In this document: positions 4,666 through 13,308 of the stretch, piece after piece | How the letters are laid out: each line of letters opens with the position of its first letter | Position numbering within the stretch: the stretch's first letter is position 1 | Virus genome (UHGV): UHGV-2036287 | Length of the DNA stretch: 37,454 nucleotides | Source: a virus | Reading direction: 5' to 3' (one strand) | Notes under the pieces: model-generated | Seen by the model: the letters and a program-made list of their open reading frames with translations, nothing else | Database searches by the model: none | What the model was told of the DNA's origin: nothing | Translations under genes and position numbers: made by a program

Positions 4666-5832
4666 TTAAACCCCTTTGACAACGTCAGCGTTGACCTGTG
4701 GAACCCCGATTTCAGCGGCCAGATTCATGGCGGCTATTACCAGGTTACTGACGGCCAGCGGATACAGCAGGCTGACCATATTTTTACGATGACTTCCCGG
4801 ATTGCTCAGGCGGGCACGTATGGCATCCACTGCGCTGGCGTCCATAATGTCCGTCAGTTGTTTACCGGCCCGTTGCAGTTTGAACGTCAGAAACTCTTCA
4901 AGGTTATTGTCCAGAGGCAGAAGTTCGACCACCTCACAGCGCTGAACGACTTCACGGACTTCCATATTGCGTTCAGACAGTTTTGTCGCCAGTTCCGGCT
5001 GGCCAATCAGCACGATGGACAGCAGTTTTTTGAAACCGGACTCCAGCTCAAAAAAGCGTTTGAGGTGTTTCAGTGTCGGAATGGGCAGACTGTGGGCCTC
5101 CTCAATCACCAGAACGTGGCTGAACCCCGCCTGGCTGCTGTCTTTCAGGACGCGATGCAACTGGCGAAAGCGGGCGTCCTGACTGCGTCTGATGCTTTCC
5201 AGTGGTGCGATGGTACTGATAATGGCTTCGGCAATCGCTGCTGCCTTCAGGGTTTTCCCTTTCACATCGTTGTCTTCCATAGCGATGATGTATGGCTCGA
5301 TAACAATTACCGGCGCATTCTCGCGGTTGATACGTTCAGTCAGGTCGCGGCGCAGCGTGGATTTACCCGCACCGGACTCACCGATGACGGCCATAAATCC
5401 ACCATGACGGGCTGTCTGGTACAGCGCCTCACGCACATAGCGGATGTCCGGGGTGGTGAACACATCATCAGAACCCTGCATGGCTTCGTCGGCGAACGGG
5501 TCACGGAAAAGACCAAACGCTTTTTTGGTTGCTGGAAATAACACCTGTTTTTTGAGTAACATATTCTCTTCCTCACTGAGGCTCGTTTTATCTGTGGTAC
5601 CCGCTGTACGGGGCGTGGCCGCGACCTGTACAGCATCAAAACTCTTCGTTGTATCAATCCCCTGACTTTCCAGCCAGGACGCAAGACGCCGGCGCACTTC
5701 TCCGGGGCGGGTGCGGGGCCACGCGTTATGATTCACAATCTGGGCCAGCGTGGCCTCAGAAACATCGACAGCTCTCGCCACCACCGCCTGTGAGATACGG
5801 GCCTCTTTCAGTTGCTGCTTCAGTACCAGCAT
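4666..5832 (-). CDS. Transposition ATPase, Mu B-like (AAA+; target DNA activator)
   Basis: Walker A GESGAGKST and Walker B-like VLVIEEAH; N-terminal HTH-like region; start moved to ATG 5832 preceded by GAGGAG (the ORF track begins at a GTG at 5871). Confidence 0.75.
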   Translation of the reverse strand: MLVLKQQLKEARISQAVVARAVDVSEATLAQIVNHNAWPRTRPGEVRRRLASWLESQGIDTTKSFDAVQVAATPRTAGTTDKTSLSEEENMLLKKQVLFPATKKAFGLFRDPFADEAMQGSDDVFTTPDIRYVREALYQTARHGGFMAVIGESGAGKSTLRRDLTERINRENAPVIVIEPYIIAMEDNDVKGKTLKAAAIAEAIISTIAPLESIRRSQDARFRQLHRVLKDSSQAGFSHVLVIEEAHSLPIPTLKHLKRFFELESGFKKLLSIVLIGQPELATKLSERNMEVREVVQRCEVVELLPLDNNLEEFLTFKLQRAGKQLTDIMDASAVDAIRARLSNPGSHRKNMVSLLYPLAVSNLVIAAMNLAAEIGVPQVNADVVKGV

Positions 5833-5842
5833 GTTTTCCTCC

Positions 5843-7612
5843 TCAGTTGCCGTTAACAATGCTGATAACACTGCTGCGGGCCGGCGTGGTCAGCGTGGCC
5901 ATGACTTCATCCAGTGCGGCTTCCGGTACGCCGTCCGGGTACTGTGCCGTTAACTGGCGGTAATGTTCCGGCGTCCAGGTAAGGCCGTCGGCGCTGAACT
6001 TATCGCGCAGGGCTTTCGCGGCCTCCACATGAGTCATGGGACGTTGTTCAGTGCGCGGCCCGCGTACGTCAGAGGCCTGACCGCGCTTCGGCATATAGGC
6101 CGGAAGTGTGGCGTCATCAATATGTTTATACGGGTCAAGCCGCCCGCCGAACGGCAGCGCCTTCGCCTTGCGTGCGGCAGCTGCATCTGTGGCGTTGTCT
6201 GTACCGGTGACCAGTGCTTCAGTTTCTTTTGCCGCCGTCTGCGCCGGTGTTTCCGGCAGGGCTTTGTAACTTTCGCCAAATACCGCCGCGCCTTCAGCAA
6301 AGCCAAACTCGTTCTTTCTGACCTCTTCGACCAGGAAGAACGTCTCGTGGCCGTCCTCACCGGTCAGAACCACCTGTGCCACATCGCTGCGCCACGGGTT
6401 ACGGGTAATCATCAGTTTTTCACCGACCAGTACGCCCGGTACCGTTGATACGTCAAATTCAGTGCCCCGGAACGAGACACGAAGTTTTGGCGTGACTTTG
6501 CGGAGTTCTGGCGCCGCCACAGCCAGTTCACGACATACCTCAACGGAAGGCGCTTTTTTCAGCTGCTCAGCAGTAATCTTCAGCCAGATATCCGTGCGGG
6601 TTTTACCGTGGCGGCTGTGAACAGCCGTGGCGTTAAAGTGGCTGCGCCATTTCGCGGCCAGCGCGTTGAGTTCTTCCAGACTGTGAACCGGCCGGAACTT
6701 CAGACCCGGCTCCAGCTTGCGTTCGATAATGTCTCGCGCCTTTTCCACCTGTCCGGTGGCGCGGGCGTTATGCGGCTTGTGCGCTATCAGGTCAATGCCC
6801 AGTGAGCGGCACATGTTTTTCGTCATACCCGCGGTGTTTGCCGAGCCGGGGTCGAGATAGAGTATTTTTGGCACGCCGTGCAGCACGTCTGCGCCGCCAC
6901 GCTCCTGCATGGCGTTGATAAGCACAGAACACAGGTTCTCACCGGATTCCGCACCCGTCACATACTCAACGTAAATCCAGCCGCTGGCATGGTCGGTAAT
7001 CTCATAACTCCACACGCGGTCACTGGCGATACGGGCAAGGTTAGCGGGCTTGTTCTTGTAGAATTTCGCGCTGTCCATCACCTGCAGCCCTTTGTGTCCA
7101 TTGCTCAAGTAGTAAAGCGTGCAGAGCGAGGCATCAATCTGCCAGACATGATTGGGATGCAGACTGGCCACTTCGGTATGCGGCGCAGGGGCATCCAGTT
7201 GTTCCGGGTGCAGGCCATAGTTACGCAGGGCACGGCTGATGGCATCTTCGGACAACGGGAAAAACTCACCGGTGGTTTCATCTGTTCTGCCTGCGGAGAT
7301 AAAGCCGTTAGCCCGCAGGGTTTCCACTGCATCCGCGATGGAATAGAGACGCTTACCGTTCTTGCGGGTGGCCTCACGCAGTGTGGCAGATATCAGCGCG
7401 GCTTCGTCGCGGGTCAGGGCGCTGCGCCCGGCATCGGCGCGTTTTTTGCGTTTATCAGTCACAGAGACCTCCTTCAGCCTGCGCAGCAGAGTGGCGCGGG
7501 ACATGCCAAGTTCAGCACAGGCAGCGTCGTATATTGCACCGCGTTTACCATGCCCCGCGTCACGTGCCGCGCGGGCGACATAAACCAGTCGTTCAGTCAG
7601 GGCAGCATTCAT
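5843..7612 (-). CDS. DDE transposase, Mu A-like (rve/integrase core)
   Basis: 589 aa; HVWQIDAS motif marking the first catalytic Asp; N-terminal HTH; RBS GGAGG upstream; followed by overlapping B gene. Confidence 0.8.
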   Translation of the reverse strand: MNAALTERLVYVARAARDAGHGKRGAIYDAACAELGMSRATLLRRLKEVSVTDKRKKRADAGRSALTRDEAALISATLREATRKNGKRLYSIADAVETLRANGFISAGRTDETTGEFFPLSEDAISRALRNYGLHPEQLDAPAPHTEVASLHPNHVWQIDASLCTLYYLSNGHKGLQVMDSAKFYKNKPANLARIASDRVWSYEITDHASGWIYVEYVTGAESGENLCSVLINAMQERGGADVLHGVPKILYLDPGSANTAGMTKNMCRSLGIDLIAHKPHNARATGQVEKARDIIERKLEPGLKFRPVHSLEELNALAAKWRSHFNATAVHSRHGKTRTDIWLKITAEQLKKAPSVEVCRELAVAAPELRKVTPKLRVSFRGTEFDVSTVPGVLVGEKLMITRNPWRSDVAQVVLTGEDGHETFFLVEEVRKNEFGFAEGAAVFGESYKALPETPAQTAAKETEALVTGTDNATDAAAARKAKALPFGGRLDPYKHIDDATLPAYMPKRGQASDVRGPRTEQRPMTHVEAAKALRDKFSADGLTWTPEHYRQLTAQYPDGVPEAALDEVMATLTTPARSSVISIVNGN

Positions 7613-8537: not shown

Positions 8538-8846
8538 TTATAAACGACTACCTGAAATGACACGTTGGTTGATTTCGTTAATACGATCCTGCGCTCGTGC
8601 CATCTCGTTACTGTGAGCCATGGCGATCTGCAGTAACTGGATGCCCGGTGCAAAACGTCCATTCTCCAGTTTCAGGGCCAGCCCTTCTTCAATGAGGGTG
8701 TTGAGTGCCCGATTAATGTTTGCTGGTGACTCGTGCAGTGCTGCCGCCAGTTCACCGTTGGAGATACCGTTCAGAGCGTGGCCACGTAACGCCTTAAGAA
8801 CACGCAAAATACGGGTACCTGCGCTTGATGTATTTGGTTTATTCAT
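8538..8846 (-). CDS. Winged-HTH DNA-binding protein (putative early regulator)
   Basis: ILRVLKALRGHALNGISNGELAAALHESPANINRALNTLIEEGL looks like an IclR/MarR-type wHTH; RBS AGGAGG; ATGA overlap with the upstream gene. Confidence 0.5.
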   Translation of the reverse strand: MNKPNTSSAGTRILRVLKALRGHALNGISNGELAAALHESPANINRALNTLIEEGLALKLENGRFAPGIQLLQIAMAHSNEMARAQDRINEINQRVISGSRL

Positions 8847-9067
8847 GACACCTCCTTAAGGATACCGGGGGTAACTTCTTTACCTATTGCAACCGATAGA
8901 TCTCGCAAAATCCGATAAGTCAAACGACCACGTGGTAGTTCACTTTTACCAGCCCAGCGACTGACTGCCTGTGTGACTGTTCGTGGCTCATAGCCTGCGT
9001 TAAGCGCGAACTGGCGCAAGCTACTGCCTCGTTCAACTAGTCGTGCCCGAACTTGTTGTTTATTCAT
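8843..9067 (-). CDS. ner: Ner-like DNA-binding regulator (Nlp/Ner family)
   Basis: 74 aa; LRQFALNAGYEPRTVTQAVSRWAGKSE parallels Mu Ner (LSRQFGYAPTTLANALERHWPKGE, from memory); first gene of the early operon, divergent from the repressor. Confidence 0.6.
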   Translation of the reverse strand: MNKQQVRARLVERGSSLRQFALNAGYEPRTVTQAVSRWAGKSELPRGRLTYRILRDLSVAIGKEVTPGILKEVS

Positions 9068-9125
9068 ATGCGGATAGTTCCAGTTGGGTTATCATGTACT
9101 CAATATGAATAAATGTACTTATTCA
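9060..9125. promoter_or_regulatory. Repressor/early-operon control region with operator-like half-sites
   Basis: Perfect inverted repeat TGAATAA-N6-TTATTCA at 9106-9125 plus another TTATTCA at 9060-9066 overlapping the ner start codon, in the 74-bp gap between divergent ner and repressor genes. Confidence 0.35.
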
Positions 9126-9155
9126 AAATAAATAAATCAAGTGGAATTACGCAAA

Positions 9156-9572
9156 ATGAATAACAAAGATGTTAACGCTGTGCTTTCCCGGTTAATGTCA
9201 CTATTCCAAGCAGAGAATGATAGTGAGTTGGCAAGAGCGCTTAACGTCAATAGGCAGACACTTGCAAGTTGGAGGAAGCGTGATTCTGTGCCTTATGCAA
9301 TTTGCATAAACATCGCAGAAGAAAAGGGGGTTTCTTTAGATTGGTTGCTAACAGGTAGAAAACAAGGTTTATCAAAAGAAGTAGACGTAACTCCGACGCA
9401 AGTGCAGTTTAGCCAAGCTGACCTTACTATGCTTGAGCTTTTAAAGCAGCTAGACCCCGAGGTTCGTAACGATCTTCTGCGAGGCGCTGCGGAAAAACAG
9501 CGAGTGATCGAGATGGAAAAACAACTGAAGGAATTATCCGCAACGATTGAGCGGTTAAAAAATGTGGGTTAA
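9156..9572 (+). CDS. CI-type phage repressor (HTH N-terminus, coiled-coil C-terminus)
   Basis: NDSELARALNVNRQTLASWRKRDSVPYAICINIAEEKGVSLDWLLTG resembles the phage CI repressor N-terminal domain; divergent from ner; no Shine-Dalgarno (possibly leaderless); the ORF could also start at GTG 9141. Confidence 0.65.
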   Translation: MNNKDVNAVLSRLMSLFQAENDSELARALNVNRQTLASWRKRDSVPYAICINIAEEKGVSLDWLLTGRKQGLSKEVDVTPTQVQFSQADLTMLELLKQLDPEVRNDLLRGAAEKQRVIEMEKQLKELSATIERLKNVG

Positions 9573-9694
9573 TCTATTCCCAATGAGAACAATTGACAAG
9601 GTTATCAAACCTCTTCGTTATATGCGCTGATTTAAACAGTAGGATGTGCTGTTTGCACTAACCATCTGAACTTTCCGCGTTAAGGATTAATCGT

Positions 9695-10588
9695 ATGAGT
9701 GGTGATGTGAGAAATTATCGTATTGAGTTTCATCAGCTATCGTTTAAGGCCACAGATCAGCTGGCAAATCTCGGAGATGCTTTTCAATCTGTAATTGATA
9801 AACAGAGCCCTTCCTCTTCAAACCATGAGGGTTTTACTAGAGAAATTTGGGGGTTGAAAAAACGCGCGGATGGTTCTTTTAGTGGAGAGTTGAGAAAATT
9901 TCGCAACTCGAACATTCCGGATAAAGGTGCACCAGGGAAACAGTCTACCCCTATTCCACTTGCCAAGGATGAAGGGATCATTGAGCGCAATTTCTTTGTA
10001 TTCTATCCTCGAATCAATGTTATAGGTTGGCACTATAATCATATGGCTTGTGGTATAAGCCGTTTTAGTGCATTTCTTTCAACTATCTTTGGTTCAAAGG
10101 TTAAGCCCGCACCTTTGCTGGAAAAAGATGCAATCGCTAGGCTTATGAGAGGAGATGTCAAAATGAAAAAAATCCAGTTGACGATTCCTCGCCCCCGTAA
10201 TCCTGAGTTTTACCCTGATACTGATTTCAGTCAAAAGACACTACAACTGCTTGGTGATGCAGGTGCCGATACAATGCAAATTGTAATGGGGATTAATACT
10301 CGCCGTGGCGATAGTGATGGTAGGCTTAAGCAGAATATAAAATTTGCTATGCAAGAGTTAGTCGAGTTTGGGGCGAAAAAGGCTGTAATTGATGTGTTCG
10401 ATGCTGATGGTGTTGTCCATCCTGTGGATTTGATTGCCGAGCGTATTTCGTCCTATCAATCGGTAGTTACTGACGCTCGTTTCCCTCCAGCCGAAACCAT
10501 GTACCGTCTAATCGATACTGCGTATGCTGAAAACCGGGAGAGTATCAATGCATATATTGGAGAAGATGAACTCGGCCCTATTGCTTAG
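9695..10588 (+). CDS. RexA-like protein (putative sensor of a Rex-type abortive-infection module)
   Basis: 297 aa soluble protein directly downstream of the repressor (lambda RexA is 279 aa); patches resembling lambda RexA from memory (FFVF...IG...FL...G, LMRG); RBS AAGGA; AT-rich relative to the backbone. Confidence 0.5.
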   Translation: MSGDVRNYRIEFHQLSFKATDQLANLGDAFQSVIDKQSPSSSNHEGFTREIWGLKKRADGSFSGELRKFRNSNIPDKGAPGKQSTPIPLAKDEGIIERNFFVFYPRINVIGWHYNHMACGISRFSAFLSTIFGSKVKPAPLLEKDAIARLMRGDVKMKKIQLTIPRPRNPEFYPDTDFSQKTLQLLGDAGADTMQIVMGINTRRGDSDGRLKQNIKFAMQELVEFGAKKAVIDVFDADGVVHPVDLIAERISSYQSVVTDARFPPAETMYRLIDTAYAENRESINAYIGEDELGPIA

Positions 10589-10985
10589 TTTATTGATTGG
10601 ATGTGGGATTGGTTTTCTCTACTGGTTCAAGTTGCCCCATATGCCAGTAGCCGCAATCCCAAACTTCATGACTACATTGTCCAGTGTCTTTGCAACGTTG
10701 TTAGGTTTTATTATTACAGCAATTGCACTACTTGCATCATTGCTTGATAAACCGTTACTTAAAAACATGCAAAAAACCGGACATTACAAGCGTCTGATGA
10801 CCGATGCATTCTACACTTGCTTAGTTTTGCTAGTGTTGGTGTTGACATGTTTGATTGGGTTGATGCTGCAAAGTAAGCATCAAGAGATTGTAGCCGCTAT
10901 CCTCATTGGGCTTGTTGTTATGTCTATGTTGTGTTTATTACAAACAGGTAGGCGATTATTCAATATAATCAAAGTGATATCATAA
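10548..10985 (+). CDS. RexB-like four-TM membrane protein (putative ion-channel effector)
   Basis: About 145 aa with four predicted TM helices (lambda RexB is 144 aa, 4 TM); TLSSVFATLLGFIITAIALLAS resembles the RexB core; start overlaps the end of the upstream gene; RBS GGGAG before ATG 10548. Confidence 0.5.
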   Translation: MHILEKMNSALLLSLLIGCGIGFLYWFKLPHMPVAAIPNFMTTLSSVFATLLGFIITAIALLASLLDKPLLKNMQKTGHYKRLMTDAFYTCLVLLVLVLTCLIGLMLQSKHQEIVAAILIGLVVMSMLCLLQTGRRLFNIIKVIS

Positions 10986-11009
10986 CAATGCACCATCAGG
11001 TGCATTGTT
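10984..11009. terminator. Hairpin between convergent genes (possible bidirectional terminator)
   Basis: AACAATGCACC-ATCA-GGTGCATTGTT, an 11-bp perfect stem with 4-nt loop between the rexB-like stop and the dam stop; no clean U-tract. Confidence 0.35.
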
Positions 11010-11037
11010 ATGCAAGACTACTTACCTCCTTCTGAGC

Positions 11038-11805
11038 CTACTCTAAATTACTTACAATAAGTTCGCGCCGTAGTGTTCCCTTTCCTGCAAGACTGTAGTT
11101 GACCTTCACACAGTGAATGTTCAGACCGTTAAAAACCTGCCGCATTTCCGGGATATCGTTGACCGATATAATCATCTTTCCTCTGATGCAACGGGCCAGC
11201 TCTGCCAACCGCGAGTAGTTCCCTTCAGGAAAATCCACACCATAGCCTTCCGTACCCAGGTACGGTGGGTCGCAGTAGAACAGCGTGTGCGGACGGTCAT
11301 AACGCTCAATGCACTGTTGCCAGTCCATGTGTTCTATCACCGTTCTGGAAAGTCGCAGGTGTGCCGCTGAGAGCTCTTCCTCAATACGCAGCAGGTTGAA
11401 GCGTGGCGGGGATGTGGTGGAGGTGCCGAAACTATGCTCTGCCACCTTGCCACCAAACGCCTGCTTCTGGAGGTAGTAGAACCGTGCCGCACGCTGGATA
11501 TCCGTCAGTGTTTCTTCCGGGGTGATCTGCAGCCATTTGTAGATCTGACGGCTGACCAGCGCCCATTTGAACTGGCGGACAAATTCTTCCAGGTGATGCT
11601 TTACCACCCGGTACAGATTCACCAGTTCACCGTTGATATCATTGATGACTTCGATCTTGCCGGGTGTCTTAAGAAAATAGAGCGCTGCTGCCCCACAAAA
11701 CGGCTCCACATAACATTCATGCGCCGGAAACAGCGGCAGAATGTGTTTTGCAAGGCGGCGTTTGCCACCAATCCACGGCACGATGGGTAATGTCTGCATT
11801 TTCAT
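11038..11805 (-). CDS. dam: DNA N6-adenine methyltransferase (Dam-like, D12 class), orphan
   Basis: PIVPWIGGKRRL and FCGAAALYF SAM-binding region and DPPY catalytic motif; no adjacent restriction enzyme; start set at MKMQ (ATG 11805). Confidence 0.8.
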   Translation of the reverse strand: MKMQTLPIVPWIGGKRRLAKHILPLFPAHECYVEPFCGAAALYFLKTPGKIEVINDINGELVNLYRVVKHHLEEFVRQFKWALVSRQIYKWLQITPEETLTDIQRAARFYYLQKQAFGGKVAEHSFGTSTTSPPRFNLLRIEEELSAAHLRLSRTVIEHMDWQQCIERYDRPHTLFYCDPPYLGTEGYGVDFPEGNYSRLAELARCIRGKMIISVNDIPEMRQVFNGLNIHCVKVNYSLAGKGTLRRELIVSNLE

Positions 11806-11909
11806 AATCTGTAAGCCTTTTACAATTATTAAAAAATATGGCAGTCTGGTCAGGTCTCGCGAGACTGACTGAACCTTGGTCGGCTCACAGCGCATTCCTG
11901 TGGGGCGAT

Positions 11910-11995: not shown

Positions 11996-12211
11996 TTATC
12001 CGGGGCGATTTTCTGACCTTATCCGGTCCAGGGCATAAGTAATACCTTCTGCAAAAACAGAAGTATCAAACTGCTTTTGTATTCCCTGAAAATGAAAAGC
12101 GGCACGACAGACACTCAGTTCTCCGCGGTATAACCGGATAATATCTTCCAGAACATTGTTCACTGCTTCAGCACGGCGCTGATGTTCTGTTAACGTTAAT
12201 CGGGGATTCAT
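11996..12211 (-). CDS. Hypothetical small protein (71 aa)
   Basis: Strong RBS (AAGGAG, 6-nt spacer) before the ATG; no recognisable domain. Confidence 0.45.
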   Translation of the reverse strand: MNPRLTLTEHQRRAEAVNNVLEDIIRLYRGELSVCRAAFHFQGIQKQFDTSVFAEGITYALDRIRSENRPG

Positions 12212-12614
12212 GATGCACTCCTTAAATGATGATTTTTATGTACTCACCGGCAAAATATTCTGCCGATTACTGAACACGCATCCGGCACCTCAGGTTTTGA
12301 TTTATTCTGGTTTTTTCGATATCCCGGACCAGGTTGATCACGACCAGAAAAAGTGCCGGTGTTTTATTGATACGCTGATATGGCTTCGGGATAACAGCTA
12401 TATTCGTTACTCTCAGTTGCTGGCTGTGGGAGCGGCTGATGTCGTCCTCACGGAAAAAACGCTCTGTCTGCTCAATGCCATGCCGACCTTTCTGCAGCCC
12501 CGGCCCGTACCATTTAAAGAGTCACTTCTGGATGCAGTAAAAACCGGTGAAAATGCAGTCATCGCTGAATGCGTATCCCGGATTATGCGTTACGTGTTTA
12601 ATGAACGTAAGTGA
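12210..12614 (+). CDS. Hypothetical protein (134 aa)
   Basis: Only long ORF in a 380-bp stretch with no minus-strand ORF; weak RBS, and its start codon overlaps the divergent 71-aa gene's start, so the call is tentative. Confidence 0.35.
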   Translation: MMHSLNDDFYVLTGKIFCRLLNTHPAPQVLIYSGFFDIPDQVDHDQKKCRCFIDTLIWLRDNSYIRYSQLLAVGAADVVLTEKTLCLLNAMPTFLQPRPVPFKESLLDAVKTGENAVIAECVSRIMRYVFNERK

Positions 12615-13308
12615 GGTTTATCCGCTGTCTGCATAATCCCGATAGCCAGTGCGAGGGGAAGTAATTCCGGGGAAACTCTTTCAAACAGCGATGCCCATTC
12701 TCCTCTCGCCATCACTCTGTCCAGCCCGCCCCCCAACTGCATTTCAGCAATCTTCCTGATTTCCCGGAACAACGCCGCTTTGATCTCTTCATGCTCAGCT
12801 TTATTTTCCGGTGTCAGAAGGTATTCGTCGAAGAACCGGGGAGGCTGGTTAATCGGGATGTGTTCCTGTTTGCCNNNNNNNNNNNNNNNNNNNNNNNNNN
12901 NNNNNGTTTACGTAACTCCTTCATGAGCAGCTCCTGATCGTAAACTGTCATCAGTGCCGCAATGGTGGCATGCTGTGCATCGGGCAGTATCCAGGGTTGC
13001 CGGCCCGTGGGGCATATAACATCCAGCAGCTCATTCGTCCGACAGATACGCTCCTCGCCGTATGACAACAGGCCCTGTCCCGTGTATTCCTCCAGCCTGA
13101 TCACTGTGCCACCCCGTGGCTTCTGCCAGGTCGTCAGATCTTCGCCATTCATACGGCGCTCATTCTCCACGTCAGCAGCATCGACAATGACGCTGTTTCC
13201 GAGTTCCTGTTTCACCATCTCTTCTATCCGCGCCAGTACGTAACTTTTACCGCTGCCCACAGGACCGGACACAGTGACAGTGATGACCGGATTCAGTGTG
13301 TGCGTCAT
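12590..13308 (-). CDS. P-loop NTPase (kinase-like), function unknown; interrupted by an assembly gap
   Basis: Walker A GPVGSGKS at residues 15-22; the reading frame is open on both sides of the N-run (12875-12905), so the two pieces probably form one protein of about 240 aa; exact frame across the gap is unverifiable. Confidence 0.5.
12875..12905. other. Assembly gap (31 N)
   Basis: Run of 31 N characters in the sequence. Confidence 1.

Follow-up and report, generated by a model that had tools for sequence, protein, structure and literature searches.

The stretch of DNA which we have analyzed (the window, 37,454 nucleotides, nt) comes from the virus genome UHGV-2036287. Directly behind a CI-type repressor gene, it contains two genes coding for a soluble protein of 297 amino acids (aa), which we call A, and a membrane protein of 145 aa, which we call B or the partner. 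These two genes are probably a distant homologue of the RexA/RexB exclusion system of phage lambda, carried as a moron by a Mu-like prophage. Most of the Rex interpretation is borne out; its support comes from structure and from a bridging sequence, and not from direct sequence matches. From the analogy with lambda, we infer an anti-phage function of the pair, of the abortive-infection type. The module is not wholly new: it represents a divergent branch of systems of the Rex kind, which has gone unannotated, has many more members than the canonical family and escapes the current models used for finding defence systems.

No phage-exclusion system has been known for longer than lambda Rex; even so, the canonical family has very few members and how the system works has yet to be settled. 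The lysogeny-side morons of Mu-like phages have been little studied. A link between Rex and DUF6731, the Pfam family in which we place the A protein, gives a testable function to a family of unknown function. Pairs of this type are missed by PADLOC, and their recognition would lead to a better annotation of defence genes in prophages, including those of Mu-like phages.

Fold and family of the soluble protein

An AlphaFold2 model of the 297-aa protein, made from 17 sequences, has moderate confidence (predicted local distance difference test, pLDDT, 74; predicted template modelling score, pTM, 0.72). The order of its elements is seven strands and three helices, then four strands and two helices in the middle, finally one strand and a long C-terminal pair of helices. 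This order agrees with the topology of lambda RexA. In the RexA crystal structure, a 7-stranded sheet forms part of a split globular domain, dimerisation is assigned to a 4-stranded domain, and the C-terminal helix is kinked.

A structure prediction of this protein had been proposed in an earlier reading of the window made from its letters (the sequence-only reading), and the best match of the model in the PDB is indeed lambda RexA. In a Foldseek search of 350,542 PDB chains, 8TWQ_B (lambda RexA) is found in first place (E 1.4e-8, probability 1.0), followed by Iml3, RdgC and CENP-L/N. A second method of structure comparison, with about 48,000 chains, also gives lambda RexA as the best match. 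Sequence identity to RexA in the structural alignment is about 14%. Further structural neighbours are RdgC, IML3/CHL4/CENP-N and 3OH8, the same ones which the paper describing the RexA structure lists for RexA itself. A fold search in BFVD finds unnamed phage proteins and one RdgC-like match. The predicted model supports a two-domain fold of the RexA/RdgC type for the 297-aa protein. Its identity as RdgC has been ruled out, RexA scores clearly higher in both structure searches.

As judged from its homologues, the 297-aa protein belongs to DUF6731 (PF20505). This family is matched by 15 of the 17 full-length homologues, including P0004, which has 76% identity; hmmscan of the window protein itself gives no match. 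DUF6731 comprises 1,051 clusters at 50% identity (E<=1e-3) in a profile search of 1.84 billion representatives. Among the 150 matches listed, nearly all are single-domain proteins of about 290 aa. A literature search on DUF6731 found no publication. Conserved motifs in the A proteins are E-G-L-x-E-K-N and I-D-L-I-A-D-R. When the DUF6731 profile is compared with the PDB, a weak match with the S1/OB domain of eIF2-alpha is also found (E 0.017). It covers window residues 210–287, is centred on I-D-L-x-x-x-R and is probably spurious.

The sequence-only reading had also proposed a search of both proteins in Pfam and in collections of defence models, which has given no RexA, RexB or defence match. 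The 297-aa protein has no match in Pfam, PADLOC or NCBIfam (E<=1 for the RexA models), and its sole match in PHROG is a family of unknown function. A BLASTP comparison with lambda RexA gives nothing, and RexA is not found by phmmer or by a profile hmmsearch against the PDB sequences. As positive controls, lambda RexA and RexB match both their Pfam and their PADLOC models strongly. In PADLOC-DB v2, which includes Kiwa and the candidate PDC systems, neither the repressor nor A nor B has a match at E<=1, and six other family members have none either. Membership in Kiwa has been rejected, no PADLOC model was matched.

Profiles were compared with hhalign. An alignment of 124 DUF6731 members gives a probability of 2.5% with a small RexA profile; when a divergent Pfam-RexA member from a P4 hotspot is added, the probability is 15%, over 157 collinear columns. 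The score is 29.6, compared with 13.6 +/- 2.2 (maximum 19.8) in 60 block shuffles. Across the different runs, E lies between 0.018 and 0.0018 over 147–157 collinear columns, with a low probability of 2.5–15%.

A RexA-like LMRG patch had been pointed out in the 297-aa protein. The four letters are present in both proteins, at residues 150–153 in the window protein and 137–140 in lambda, but the profile alignment pairs EPLMRG with APLLEK, at 139–144 in the window protein. The two patches are about 10 residues out of register, and we have rejected LMRG as a common motif: the identity, on this alignment, is probably coincidental.

The membrane partner and RexB

The partner has four transmembrane (TM) segments according to its hydropathy, and four long helices appear in the secondary structure of its AlphaFold2 model. 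The pair was studied in 53 loci, taken from metagenomes and viral contigs as well as from genomes, and 52 of these loci include DNA downstream of the DUF6731 gene. A partner homologue is found there in all 52 (hmmsearch E 1e-11 to 1e-68). These homologues usually have about 140–157 aa and four hydrophobic segments, and their genes usually overlap the A gene. The pairing persists where the A proteins are just 23–35% identical to the window protein. Both open reading frames (ORFs) are real genes, and their pairing is conserved across more than 50 loci.

Conserved positions of the partner are found in TM2 and the basic loop which follows, T-L-L-G-F-x-I-T ... D-K/R-x-L-x-x-N-M-x-K-T-G-H-Y/F, and in a second patch, a C-terminal G-R/K-R-F/L motif. 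Both loops are predicted, by the positive-inside rule, to be cytoplasmic.

The hydropathy of the partner correlates with that of RexB (r 0.65), with the best fit at zero offset. A BLASTP comparison with lambda RexB gives a weak, collinear alignment (26% identity over 92 residues, E 0.4). The RexB-like patch noticed in the sequence-only reading, TLSS..A.T, is real: it lies within the sole segment which BLASTP and hhalign align between the two proteins. The RexB models (Pfam PF15968, PADLOC PDLC02340) do not match the window partner or any of 18 family members. The direct profile match between the partner and RexB improves with the diversity of the alignment. With 18 sequences, hhalign gives a probability of 4% and a score of 21.3 (12.5 +/- 2.4 in block shuffles); with 49 sequences, these values are 31% (E 5e-4) and 28.6 (13.8 +/- 2.6, maximum 22.4).

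The bridging sequence comes from system 22 of the P4 hotspot (Rousset 2022, PMC9122126, Table S1B), whose two genes are labelled RexA and RexB and described as "similar to lambda-encoded RexAB". The Pfam RexA model recognises its A protein, A22 (E 5e-11, 43 bits), and the PADLOC RexB model is matched by its 4-TM partner, B22 (E 4.4e-6). The match of B22 with the profile of the window partner family is stronger than that with RexB: 27.7 bits, while none of 500 block shuffles exceeds 7.1. In an hhalign comparison, B22 and the window partner family give a probability of 87.5% and a score of 40.1, compared with 13.0 +/- 2.9. B22 matches both RexB and the window partner, and A22 is placed in RexA, so that the partner family provides a genuine RexA protein with its membrane component and is linked to RexB by sequence. 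Homology of the partner to RexB is supported indirectly, through B22 as an intermediate. The B22 link excepted, the probabilities of homology are below the conventional cut-offs. The Rex interpretation which had been suggested from the letters of the window is essentially right. The RexA fold is found by two structure methods and RexB is reached via B22; direct membership in the Rex families of Pfam, PADLOC or NCBIfam does not hold.

A motif search of the supplements of Rousset et al. for DUF6731-type sequences has given no true match. The same Table S1B contains another pair labelled RexA and RexB, system 36, with a protein of 308 aa and a 4-TM protein of 194 aa. In our scans this pair has no match with Pfam RexA or with the profiles of RexB, DUF6731 and the partner. 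System 36 may represent one more Rex-like branch which has diverged; a wrong label is the other possibility.

Distribution, genomic slots and gene layout

Of the 5,426 complete E. coli genomes, 23 contain an identical module, whose chromosomal site differs. In these 23 genomes the two genes are always annotated as hypothetical proteins. Several Enterobacteriaceae have the exact proteins, on at least 1,000 contigs, and the RefSeq label for both genes in E. coli and Salmonella is "hypothetical". The membrane-partner family is systematically under-annotated. At L083 (7042–7386, E. coli AR_0067, NZ_CP032261) the Prokaryotic Genome Annotation Pipeline (PGAP) gives the partner as a truncated protein of 114 aa, and at L002 (6848–7282), in Scandinavium goeteborgense CP054058, the 144-aa partner is not called although its ORF is intact.

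The two ORFs alone form a mobile unit. Copies with 73–80% protein identity are found in differing contexts, and the similarity of the flanks ends at the start and stop codons. Several slots are occupied. The cassette is found behind the repressor of Mu-like phages in the window, L029, L040, L045 and L061. In L055 it lies behind a CI protein with HTH_3 and Peptidase_S24 domains, on the + strand, which faces a Cro-type gene (P22_Cro, - strand), and L034 is similar: this layout reproduces the lambda synteny cro, cI-rexA-rexB in unrelated phages. Other copies are located beside the Q antiterminator in lambdoid prophages, and beside a P2-type portal and terminase in L056 and L057, a site which is a documented defence hotspot of P2. 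In L004, from Citrobacter amalonaticus, the cassette is at the edge of a CP4-like island (a CP4-57-like element), which indicates that it is not limited to functional prophages. The neighbours of the L004 pair are DUF4942, DUF5983, CbtA/CbeA, RadC, an antirestriction gene and DUF932.

Klebsiella phage KP12 (OM835952; L007) is a related transposable phage, with 82% DNA identity in the repressor region. In the slot between the repressor and dam it has a different gene, coding for a hypothetical protein of 177 aa (5603–6136). This slot is therefore a variable moron site in these phages. The suggestion that the module has been acquired is borne out by KP12 and by the pairs found in other prophage slots and islands, and our results support the description of the pair as an acquired cassette, which behaves like a moron expressed in lysogeny.

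The arrangement described in the sequence-only reading, a CI-type repressor followed by a co-oriented 297-aa protein and an overlapping 145-aa protein with four TM helices, agrees with the ORF analysis, which gives three co-oriented ORFs on the + strand, with the PF07022 match of the repressor, with hydropathy and with the AlphaFold2 model. The features are shown in Table 1.

Table 1. Features of the repressor region and the Rex-like pair in the window.
Feature	Position	Strand	Evidence or remarks
CI-type prophage repressor (helix-turn-helix, HTH)	9141..9572 (GTG, 143 aa) or from ATG 9156 (138 aa)	+	PF07022 and PHROG
Spacer from repressor to RexA-like gene, 122 nt	9573..9694	+	No terminator-like structure
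Soluble RexA-like protein, DUF6731 family, 297 aa, proposed cytoplasmic sensor/DNA-binding component	9695..10588	+	
Four-TM RexB-like membrane partner, 145 aa, proposed membrane effector	10548..10985	+	41-nt overlap with the upstream gene
Perfect hairpin of 14 base pairs, probable bidirectional terminator	10981..11012	.	Folding compared with shuffles

The repressor matches PF07022 Phage_CI_repr (E 1.2e-17) and also PHROG families of transcriptional repressors. Its 138-aa form is the one used by RefSeq and by most database copies, where it is named phage repressor, and ATG 9156 is likely to be the true start. The membrane ORF may be read from 10524 or 10548. We have placed the start at the second position, because all homologues have 145 aa and because this ATG is preceded by a Shine-Dalgarno sequence, GGGAGAG.

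The segment from 9141 to 10985 had been described as AT-rich, and in fact it is the lowest stretch of the window in guanine plus cytosine content: 0.417, compared with a mean of 0.545 (standard deviation 0.040, in 1845-nt windows). A consensus scan of the spacer finds neither a terminator nor a promoter consensus on the + strand, and its fold z-score is -0.22. This spacer is not kept in the copies of the cassette from other contexts. As it has no terminator-like structure, read-through transcription of the pair from the repressor promoter is plausible. At the other end, the hairpin lies between the convergent genes of the membrane partner and dam. Its folding energies on the two strands are -21.2 and -22.6 kcal/mol (z -6.3 and -5.6), and none of 200 shuffles is equally stable. 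It was missed by the consensus terminator scan because it has no T tract; it is probably a bidirectional terminator which closes the module.

The host element is a Mu-like transposable prophage of E. coli. A leftward early operon which faces the repressor contains a Ner-like HTH protein, DUF3102, a transposase, a MuB-like ExeA ATPase and Gam, and the late genes are rightward: the window is therefore of the Mu/BcepMu type.

Several neighbouring features may also be described. The divergent region between the Ner-like gene (8843–9067, - strand) and the repressor, from 9056 to 9165, contains TTATTCA/TGAATAA several times and in either orientation. It also contains three direct repeats of 18 nt, TAYTCAAAATRAATAAAT-like, with a spacing of 23 and 28 nt. 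These elements are probably operators for the repressor or Ner of the Mu-like phage. A gene for a Dam-family N6-adenine methyltransferase (TIGR00571, E 2.6e-33) lies at 11038–11895 on the - strand and is convergent with the Rex-like pair; its PGAP form is shorter (255 aa). The ORF at 12210–12614 (+ strand, 134 aa) has no family match. These two genes sit between the immunity region and the lysis genes and form another accessory stretch. A run of 31 N, at about 12860–12900, breaks the ORFs around 12814–13308 (- strand) and gives runs of X in the translations.

Function of the pair and comparison with known systems

If the analogy with lambda Rex holds (Adams 2024, PMC11077077), the pair would be transcribed in the lysogen with the repressor, or just after it. 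The A protein would probably be a dimer which binds DNA non-specifically, and it might sense DNA or a DNA-protein intermediate of a superinfecting phage. It would then activate B, probably by way of the conserved loop D-K-x-L-x-x-N-M-x-K-T-G-H-Y on the cytoplasmic side of B; B would dissipate the membrane potential and the infection would abort. The 41-nt overlap between the two genes suggests a translational coupling which would fix the A:B ratio. This ratio is critical for lambda Rex (PMC11077077 and the earlier Rex literature summarised there). An exclusion role is also indirectly favoured by the position of the pair behind the repressor, without a terminator between them, and by its presence in known defence slots of prophages. 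The many diverse homologues, with their conserved motifs in the partner loop and in the A protein (E-G-L-x-E-K-N and I-D-L-I-A-D-R), may be used to dissect the communication between the sensor and the effector of Rex.

Several points weigh against this interpretation. An exclusion role of DUF6731 pairs would be based on the analogy with lambda Rex, whose own mechanism is incompletely established. Neither the window proteins nor other members of the family are matched by the Rex models of Pfam and PADLOC or by NCBIfam: the RexA models (Pfam PF15969, PADLOC PDLC02339) match none of the 17 close homologues at E<=10, and in PADLOC none of five further DUF6731 members is matched. The hhalign probabilities are low for both A (15%) and B (31%), and the AlphaFold2 model of the partner is poor (pLDDT 60) and was left out of the fold search. 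In most loci the cassette does not adjoin a repressor, and co-transcription with the repressor is something which we infer. Finally, Rousset et al. (PMC9122126) cloned two Rex-like P4 systems, which are outside the seven reported as protective.

Three other explanations should be considered. RexA of lambda shifts the balance of the bistable switch without a need for RexB, by binding to DNA (non-specifically) and to components of the repressor. There are at least three unrelated backbones, those of the window, L034 and L055, in which a CI repressor directly precedes the cassette. The RexA-like protein might thus act mainly as a modulator of the lysis-lysogeny switch of its own prophage, the partner would be an accessory and exclusion would not be the selected function. 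We consider this quite improbable: most copies are away from a repressor, beside Q, a P2-type portal or in a non-phage island, and the partner is kept in 52 of the 52 loci, so that the pair rather than A alone is under selection. It is also improbable, in our opinion, that the fold is common with RexA only through a wider RdgC-like superfamily, and that the pair has some other role at the membrane, such as a block of DNA entry (classical superinfection exclusion) or an addiction of the toxin-antitoxin kind, with no abortive logic. In the two structure searches the score of RexA is clearly above that of RdgC. B22, whose own A protein is a genuine Pfam RexA member, connects the partner family with RexB, and the gene order, the sizes and the TM register are all as in Rex. 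Nevertheless, the RdgC/IML3/CENP-N fold serves varied DNA-binding roles, the sequence similarity of the A protein to RexA is under routine thresholds and the Rex-like P4 systems which have been cloned have no reported Rex phenotype.

An artefact seems very improbable. In such a case the AlphaFold model would have been over-read, the likeness of the partner to RexB would be that of any small four-helix membrane protein, and the two ORFs would be unrelated hypothetical genes. The A model has moderate confidence, that of B is of low quality, and spurious matches are frequent with TM proteins. On the other side, two independent structure methods, with about 350,000 and 48,000 chains, give the same best match, block shuffles which keep the local hydrophobicity never reach the real scores and the pairing is strict in the 52 loci.

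Distant homology to lambda Rex is therefore the explanation which we prefer. A wider proposal would be that DUF6731 and its four-TM partner are the main branch, previously unrecognised, of a Rex superfamily in the prophages, satellites and islands of Proteobacteria, and that their repeated capture behind unrelated CI repressors reflects a conserved functional coupling with the immunity switch, and is more than a convenient way of being expressed in the lysogen. We regard this as rather unlikely. The repressors which have the cassette behind them are of the PF07022 type in the Mu-like phage and of the HTH plus S24 type in L034 and L055. If the coupling were true, the pair would be a modulator of the switch as well as an exclusion device, possibly with triggers unlike those of lambda Rex.

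We have compared the pair with four known systems. RdgC (PDB 2OWL/2OWY) differs by its lower score than RexA; it is a chromosomal housekeeping protein without a membrane partner. Several pairs of temperate actinobacteriophages (Sbash gp30/31, CarolAnn gp44 and Toast gp42; PMC11077077) are alike by their description: they consist of a divergent RexA-like protein and a membrane protein, their genes are often neighbours of the immunity repressor gene, and other phages are excluded by them. However, their hosts are Gram-positive and their A proteins are longer (337–372 aa). System 22 (PMC9122126) is also a pair of a soluble and a 4-TM protein, located in a defence hotspot of prophages and satellites, and B22 is homologous to the window partner family. 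It differs in that A22 is recognisable as Pfam RexA, whereas the window A protein is a DUF6731 member which that model does not recognise, and B22 matches the PADLOC RexB model, which the window partner does not.

The closest similarity is with lambda, whose cI-rexA-rexB arrangement had been invoked in the sequence-only reading and is confirmed on NC_001416, with products of 279 and 144 aa. In both cases a gene for a soluble protein and then a gene for a membrane protein are located on the repressor strand, directly behind a CI-type repressor. The sizes of the products are similar, 297 and 145 aa in the window, the four TM helices of the partner are in the register of RexB, and both pairs are AT-rich morons on the lysogeny side. 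There are also clear differences. The window proteins match no RexA or RexB sequence model (PF15969/PF15968; PDLC02339/PDLC02340), with about 14% structural identity to 8TWQ. The window genes overlap by 41 nt, while a gap of 15 nt separates the lambda genes. The host of the window pair is a Mu-like transposable phage, with a repressor of the PF07022 type which has no S24 domain. Finally, the DUF6731 family is much larger and more widely placed, whereas canonical Rex corresponds to a handful of variants in the phage collection.

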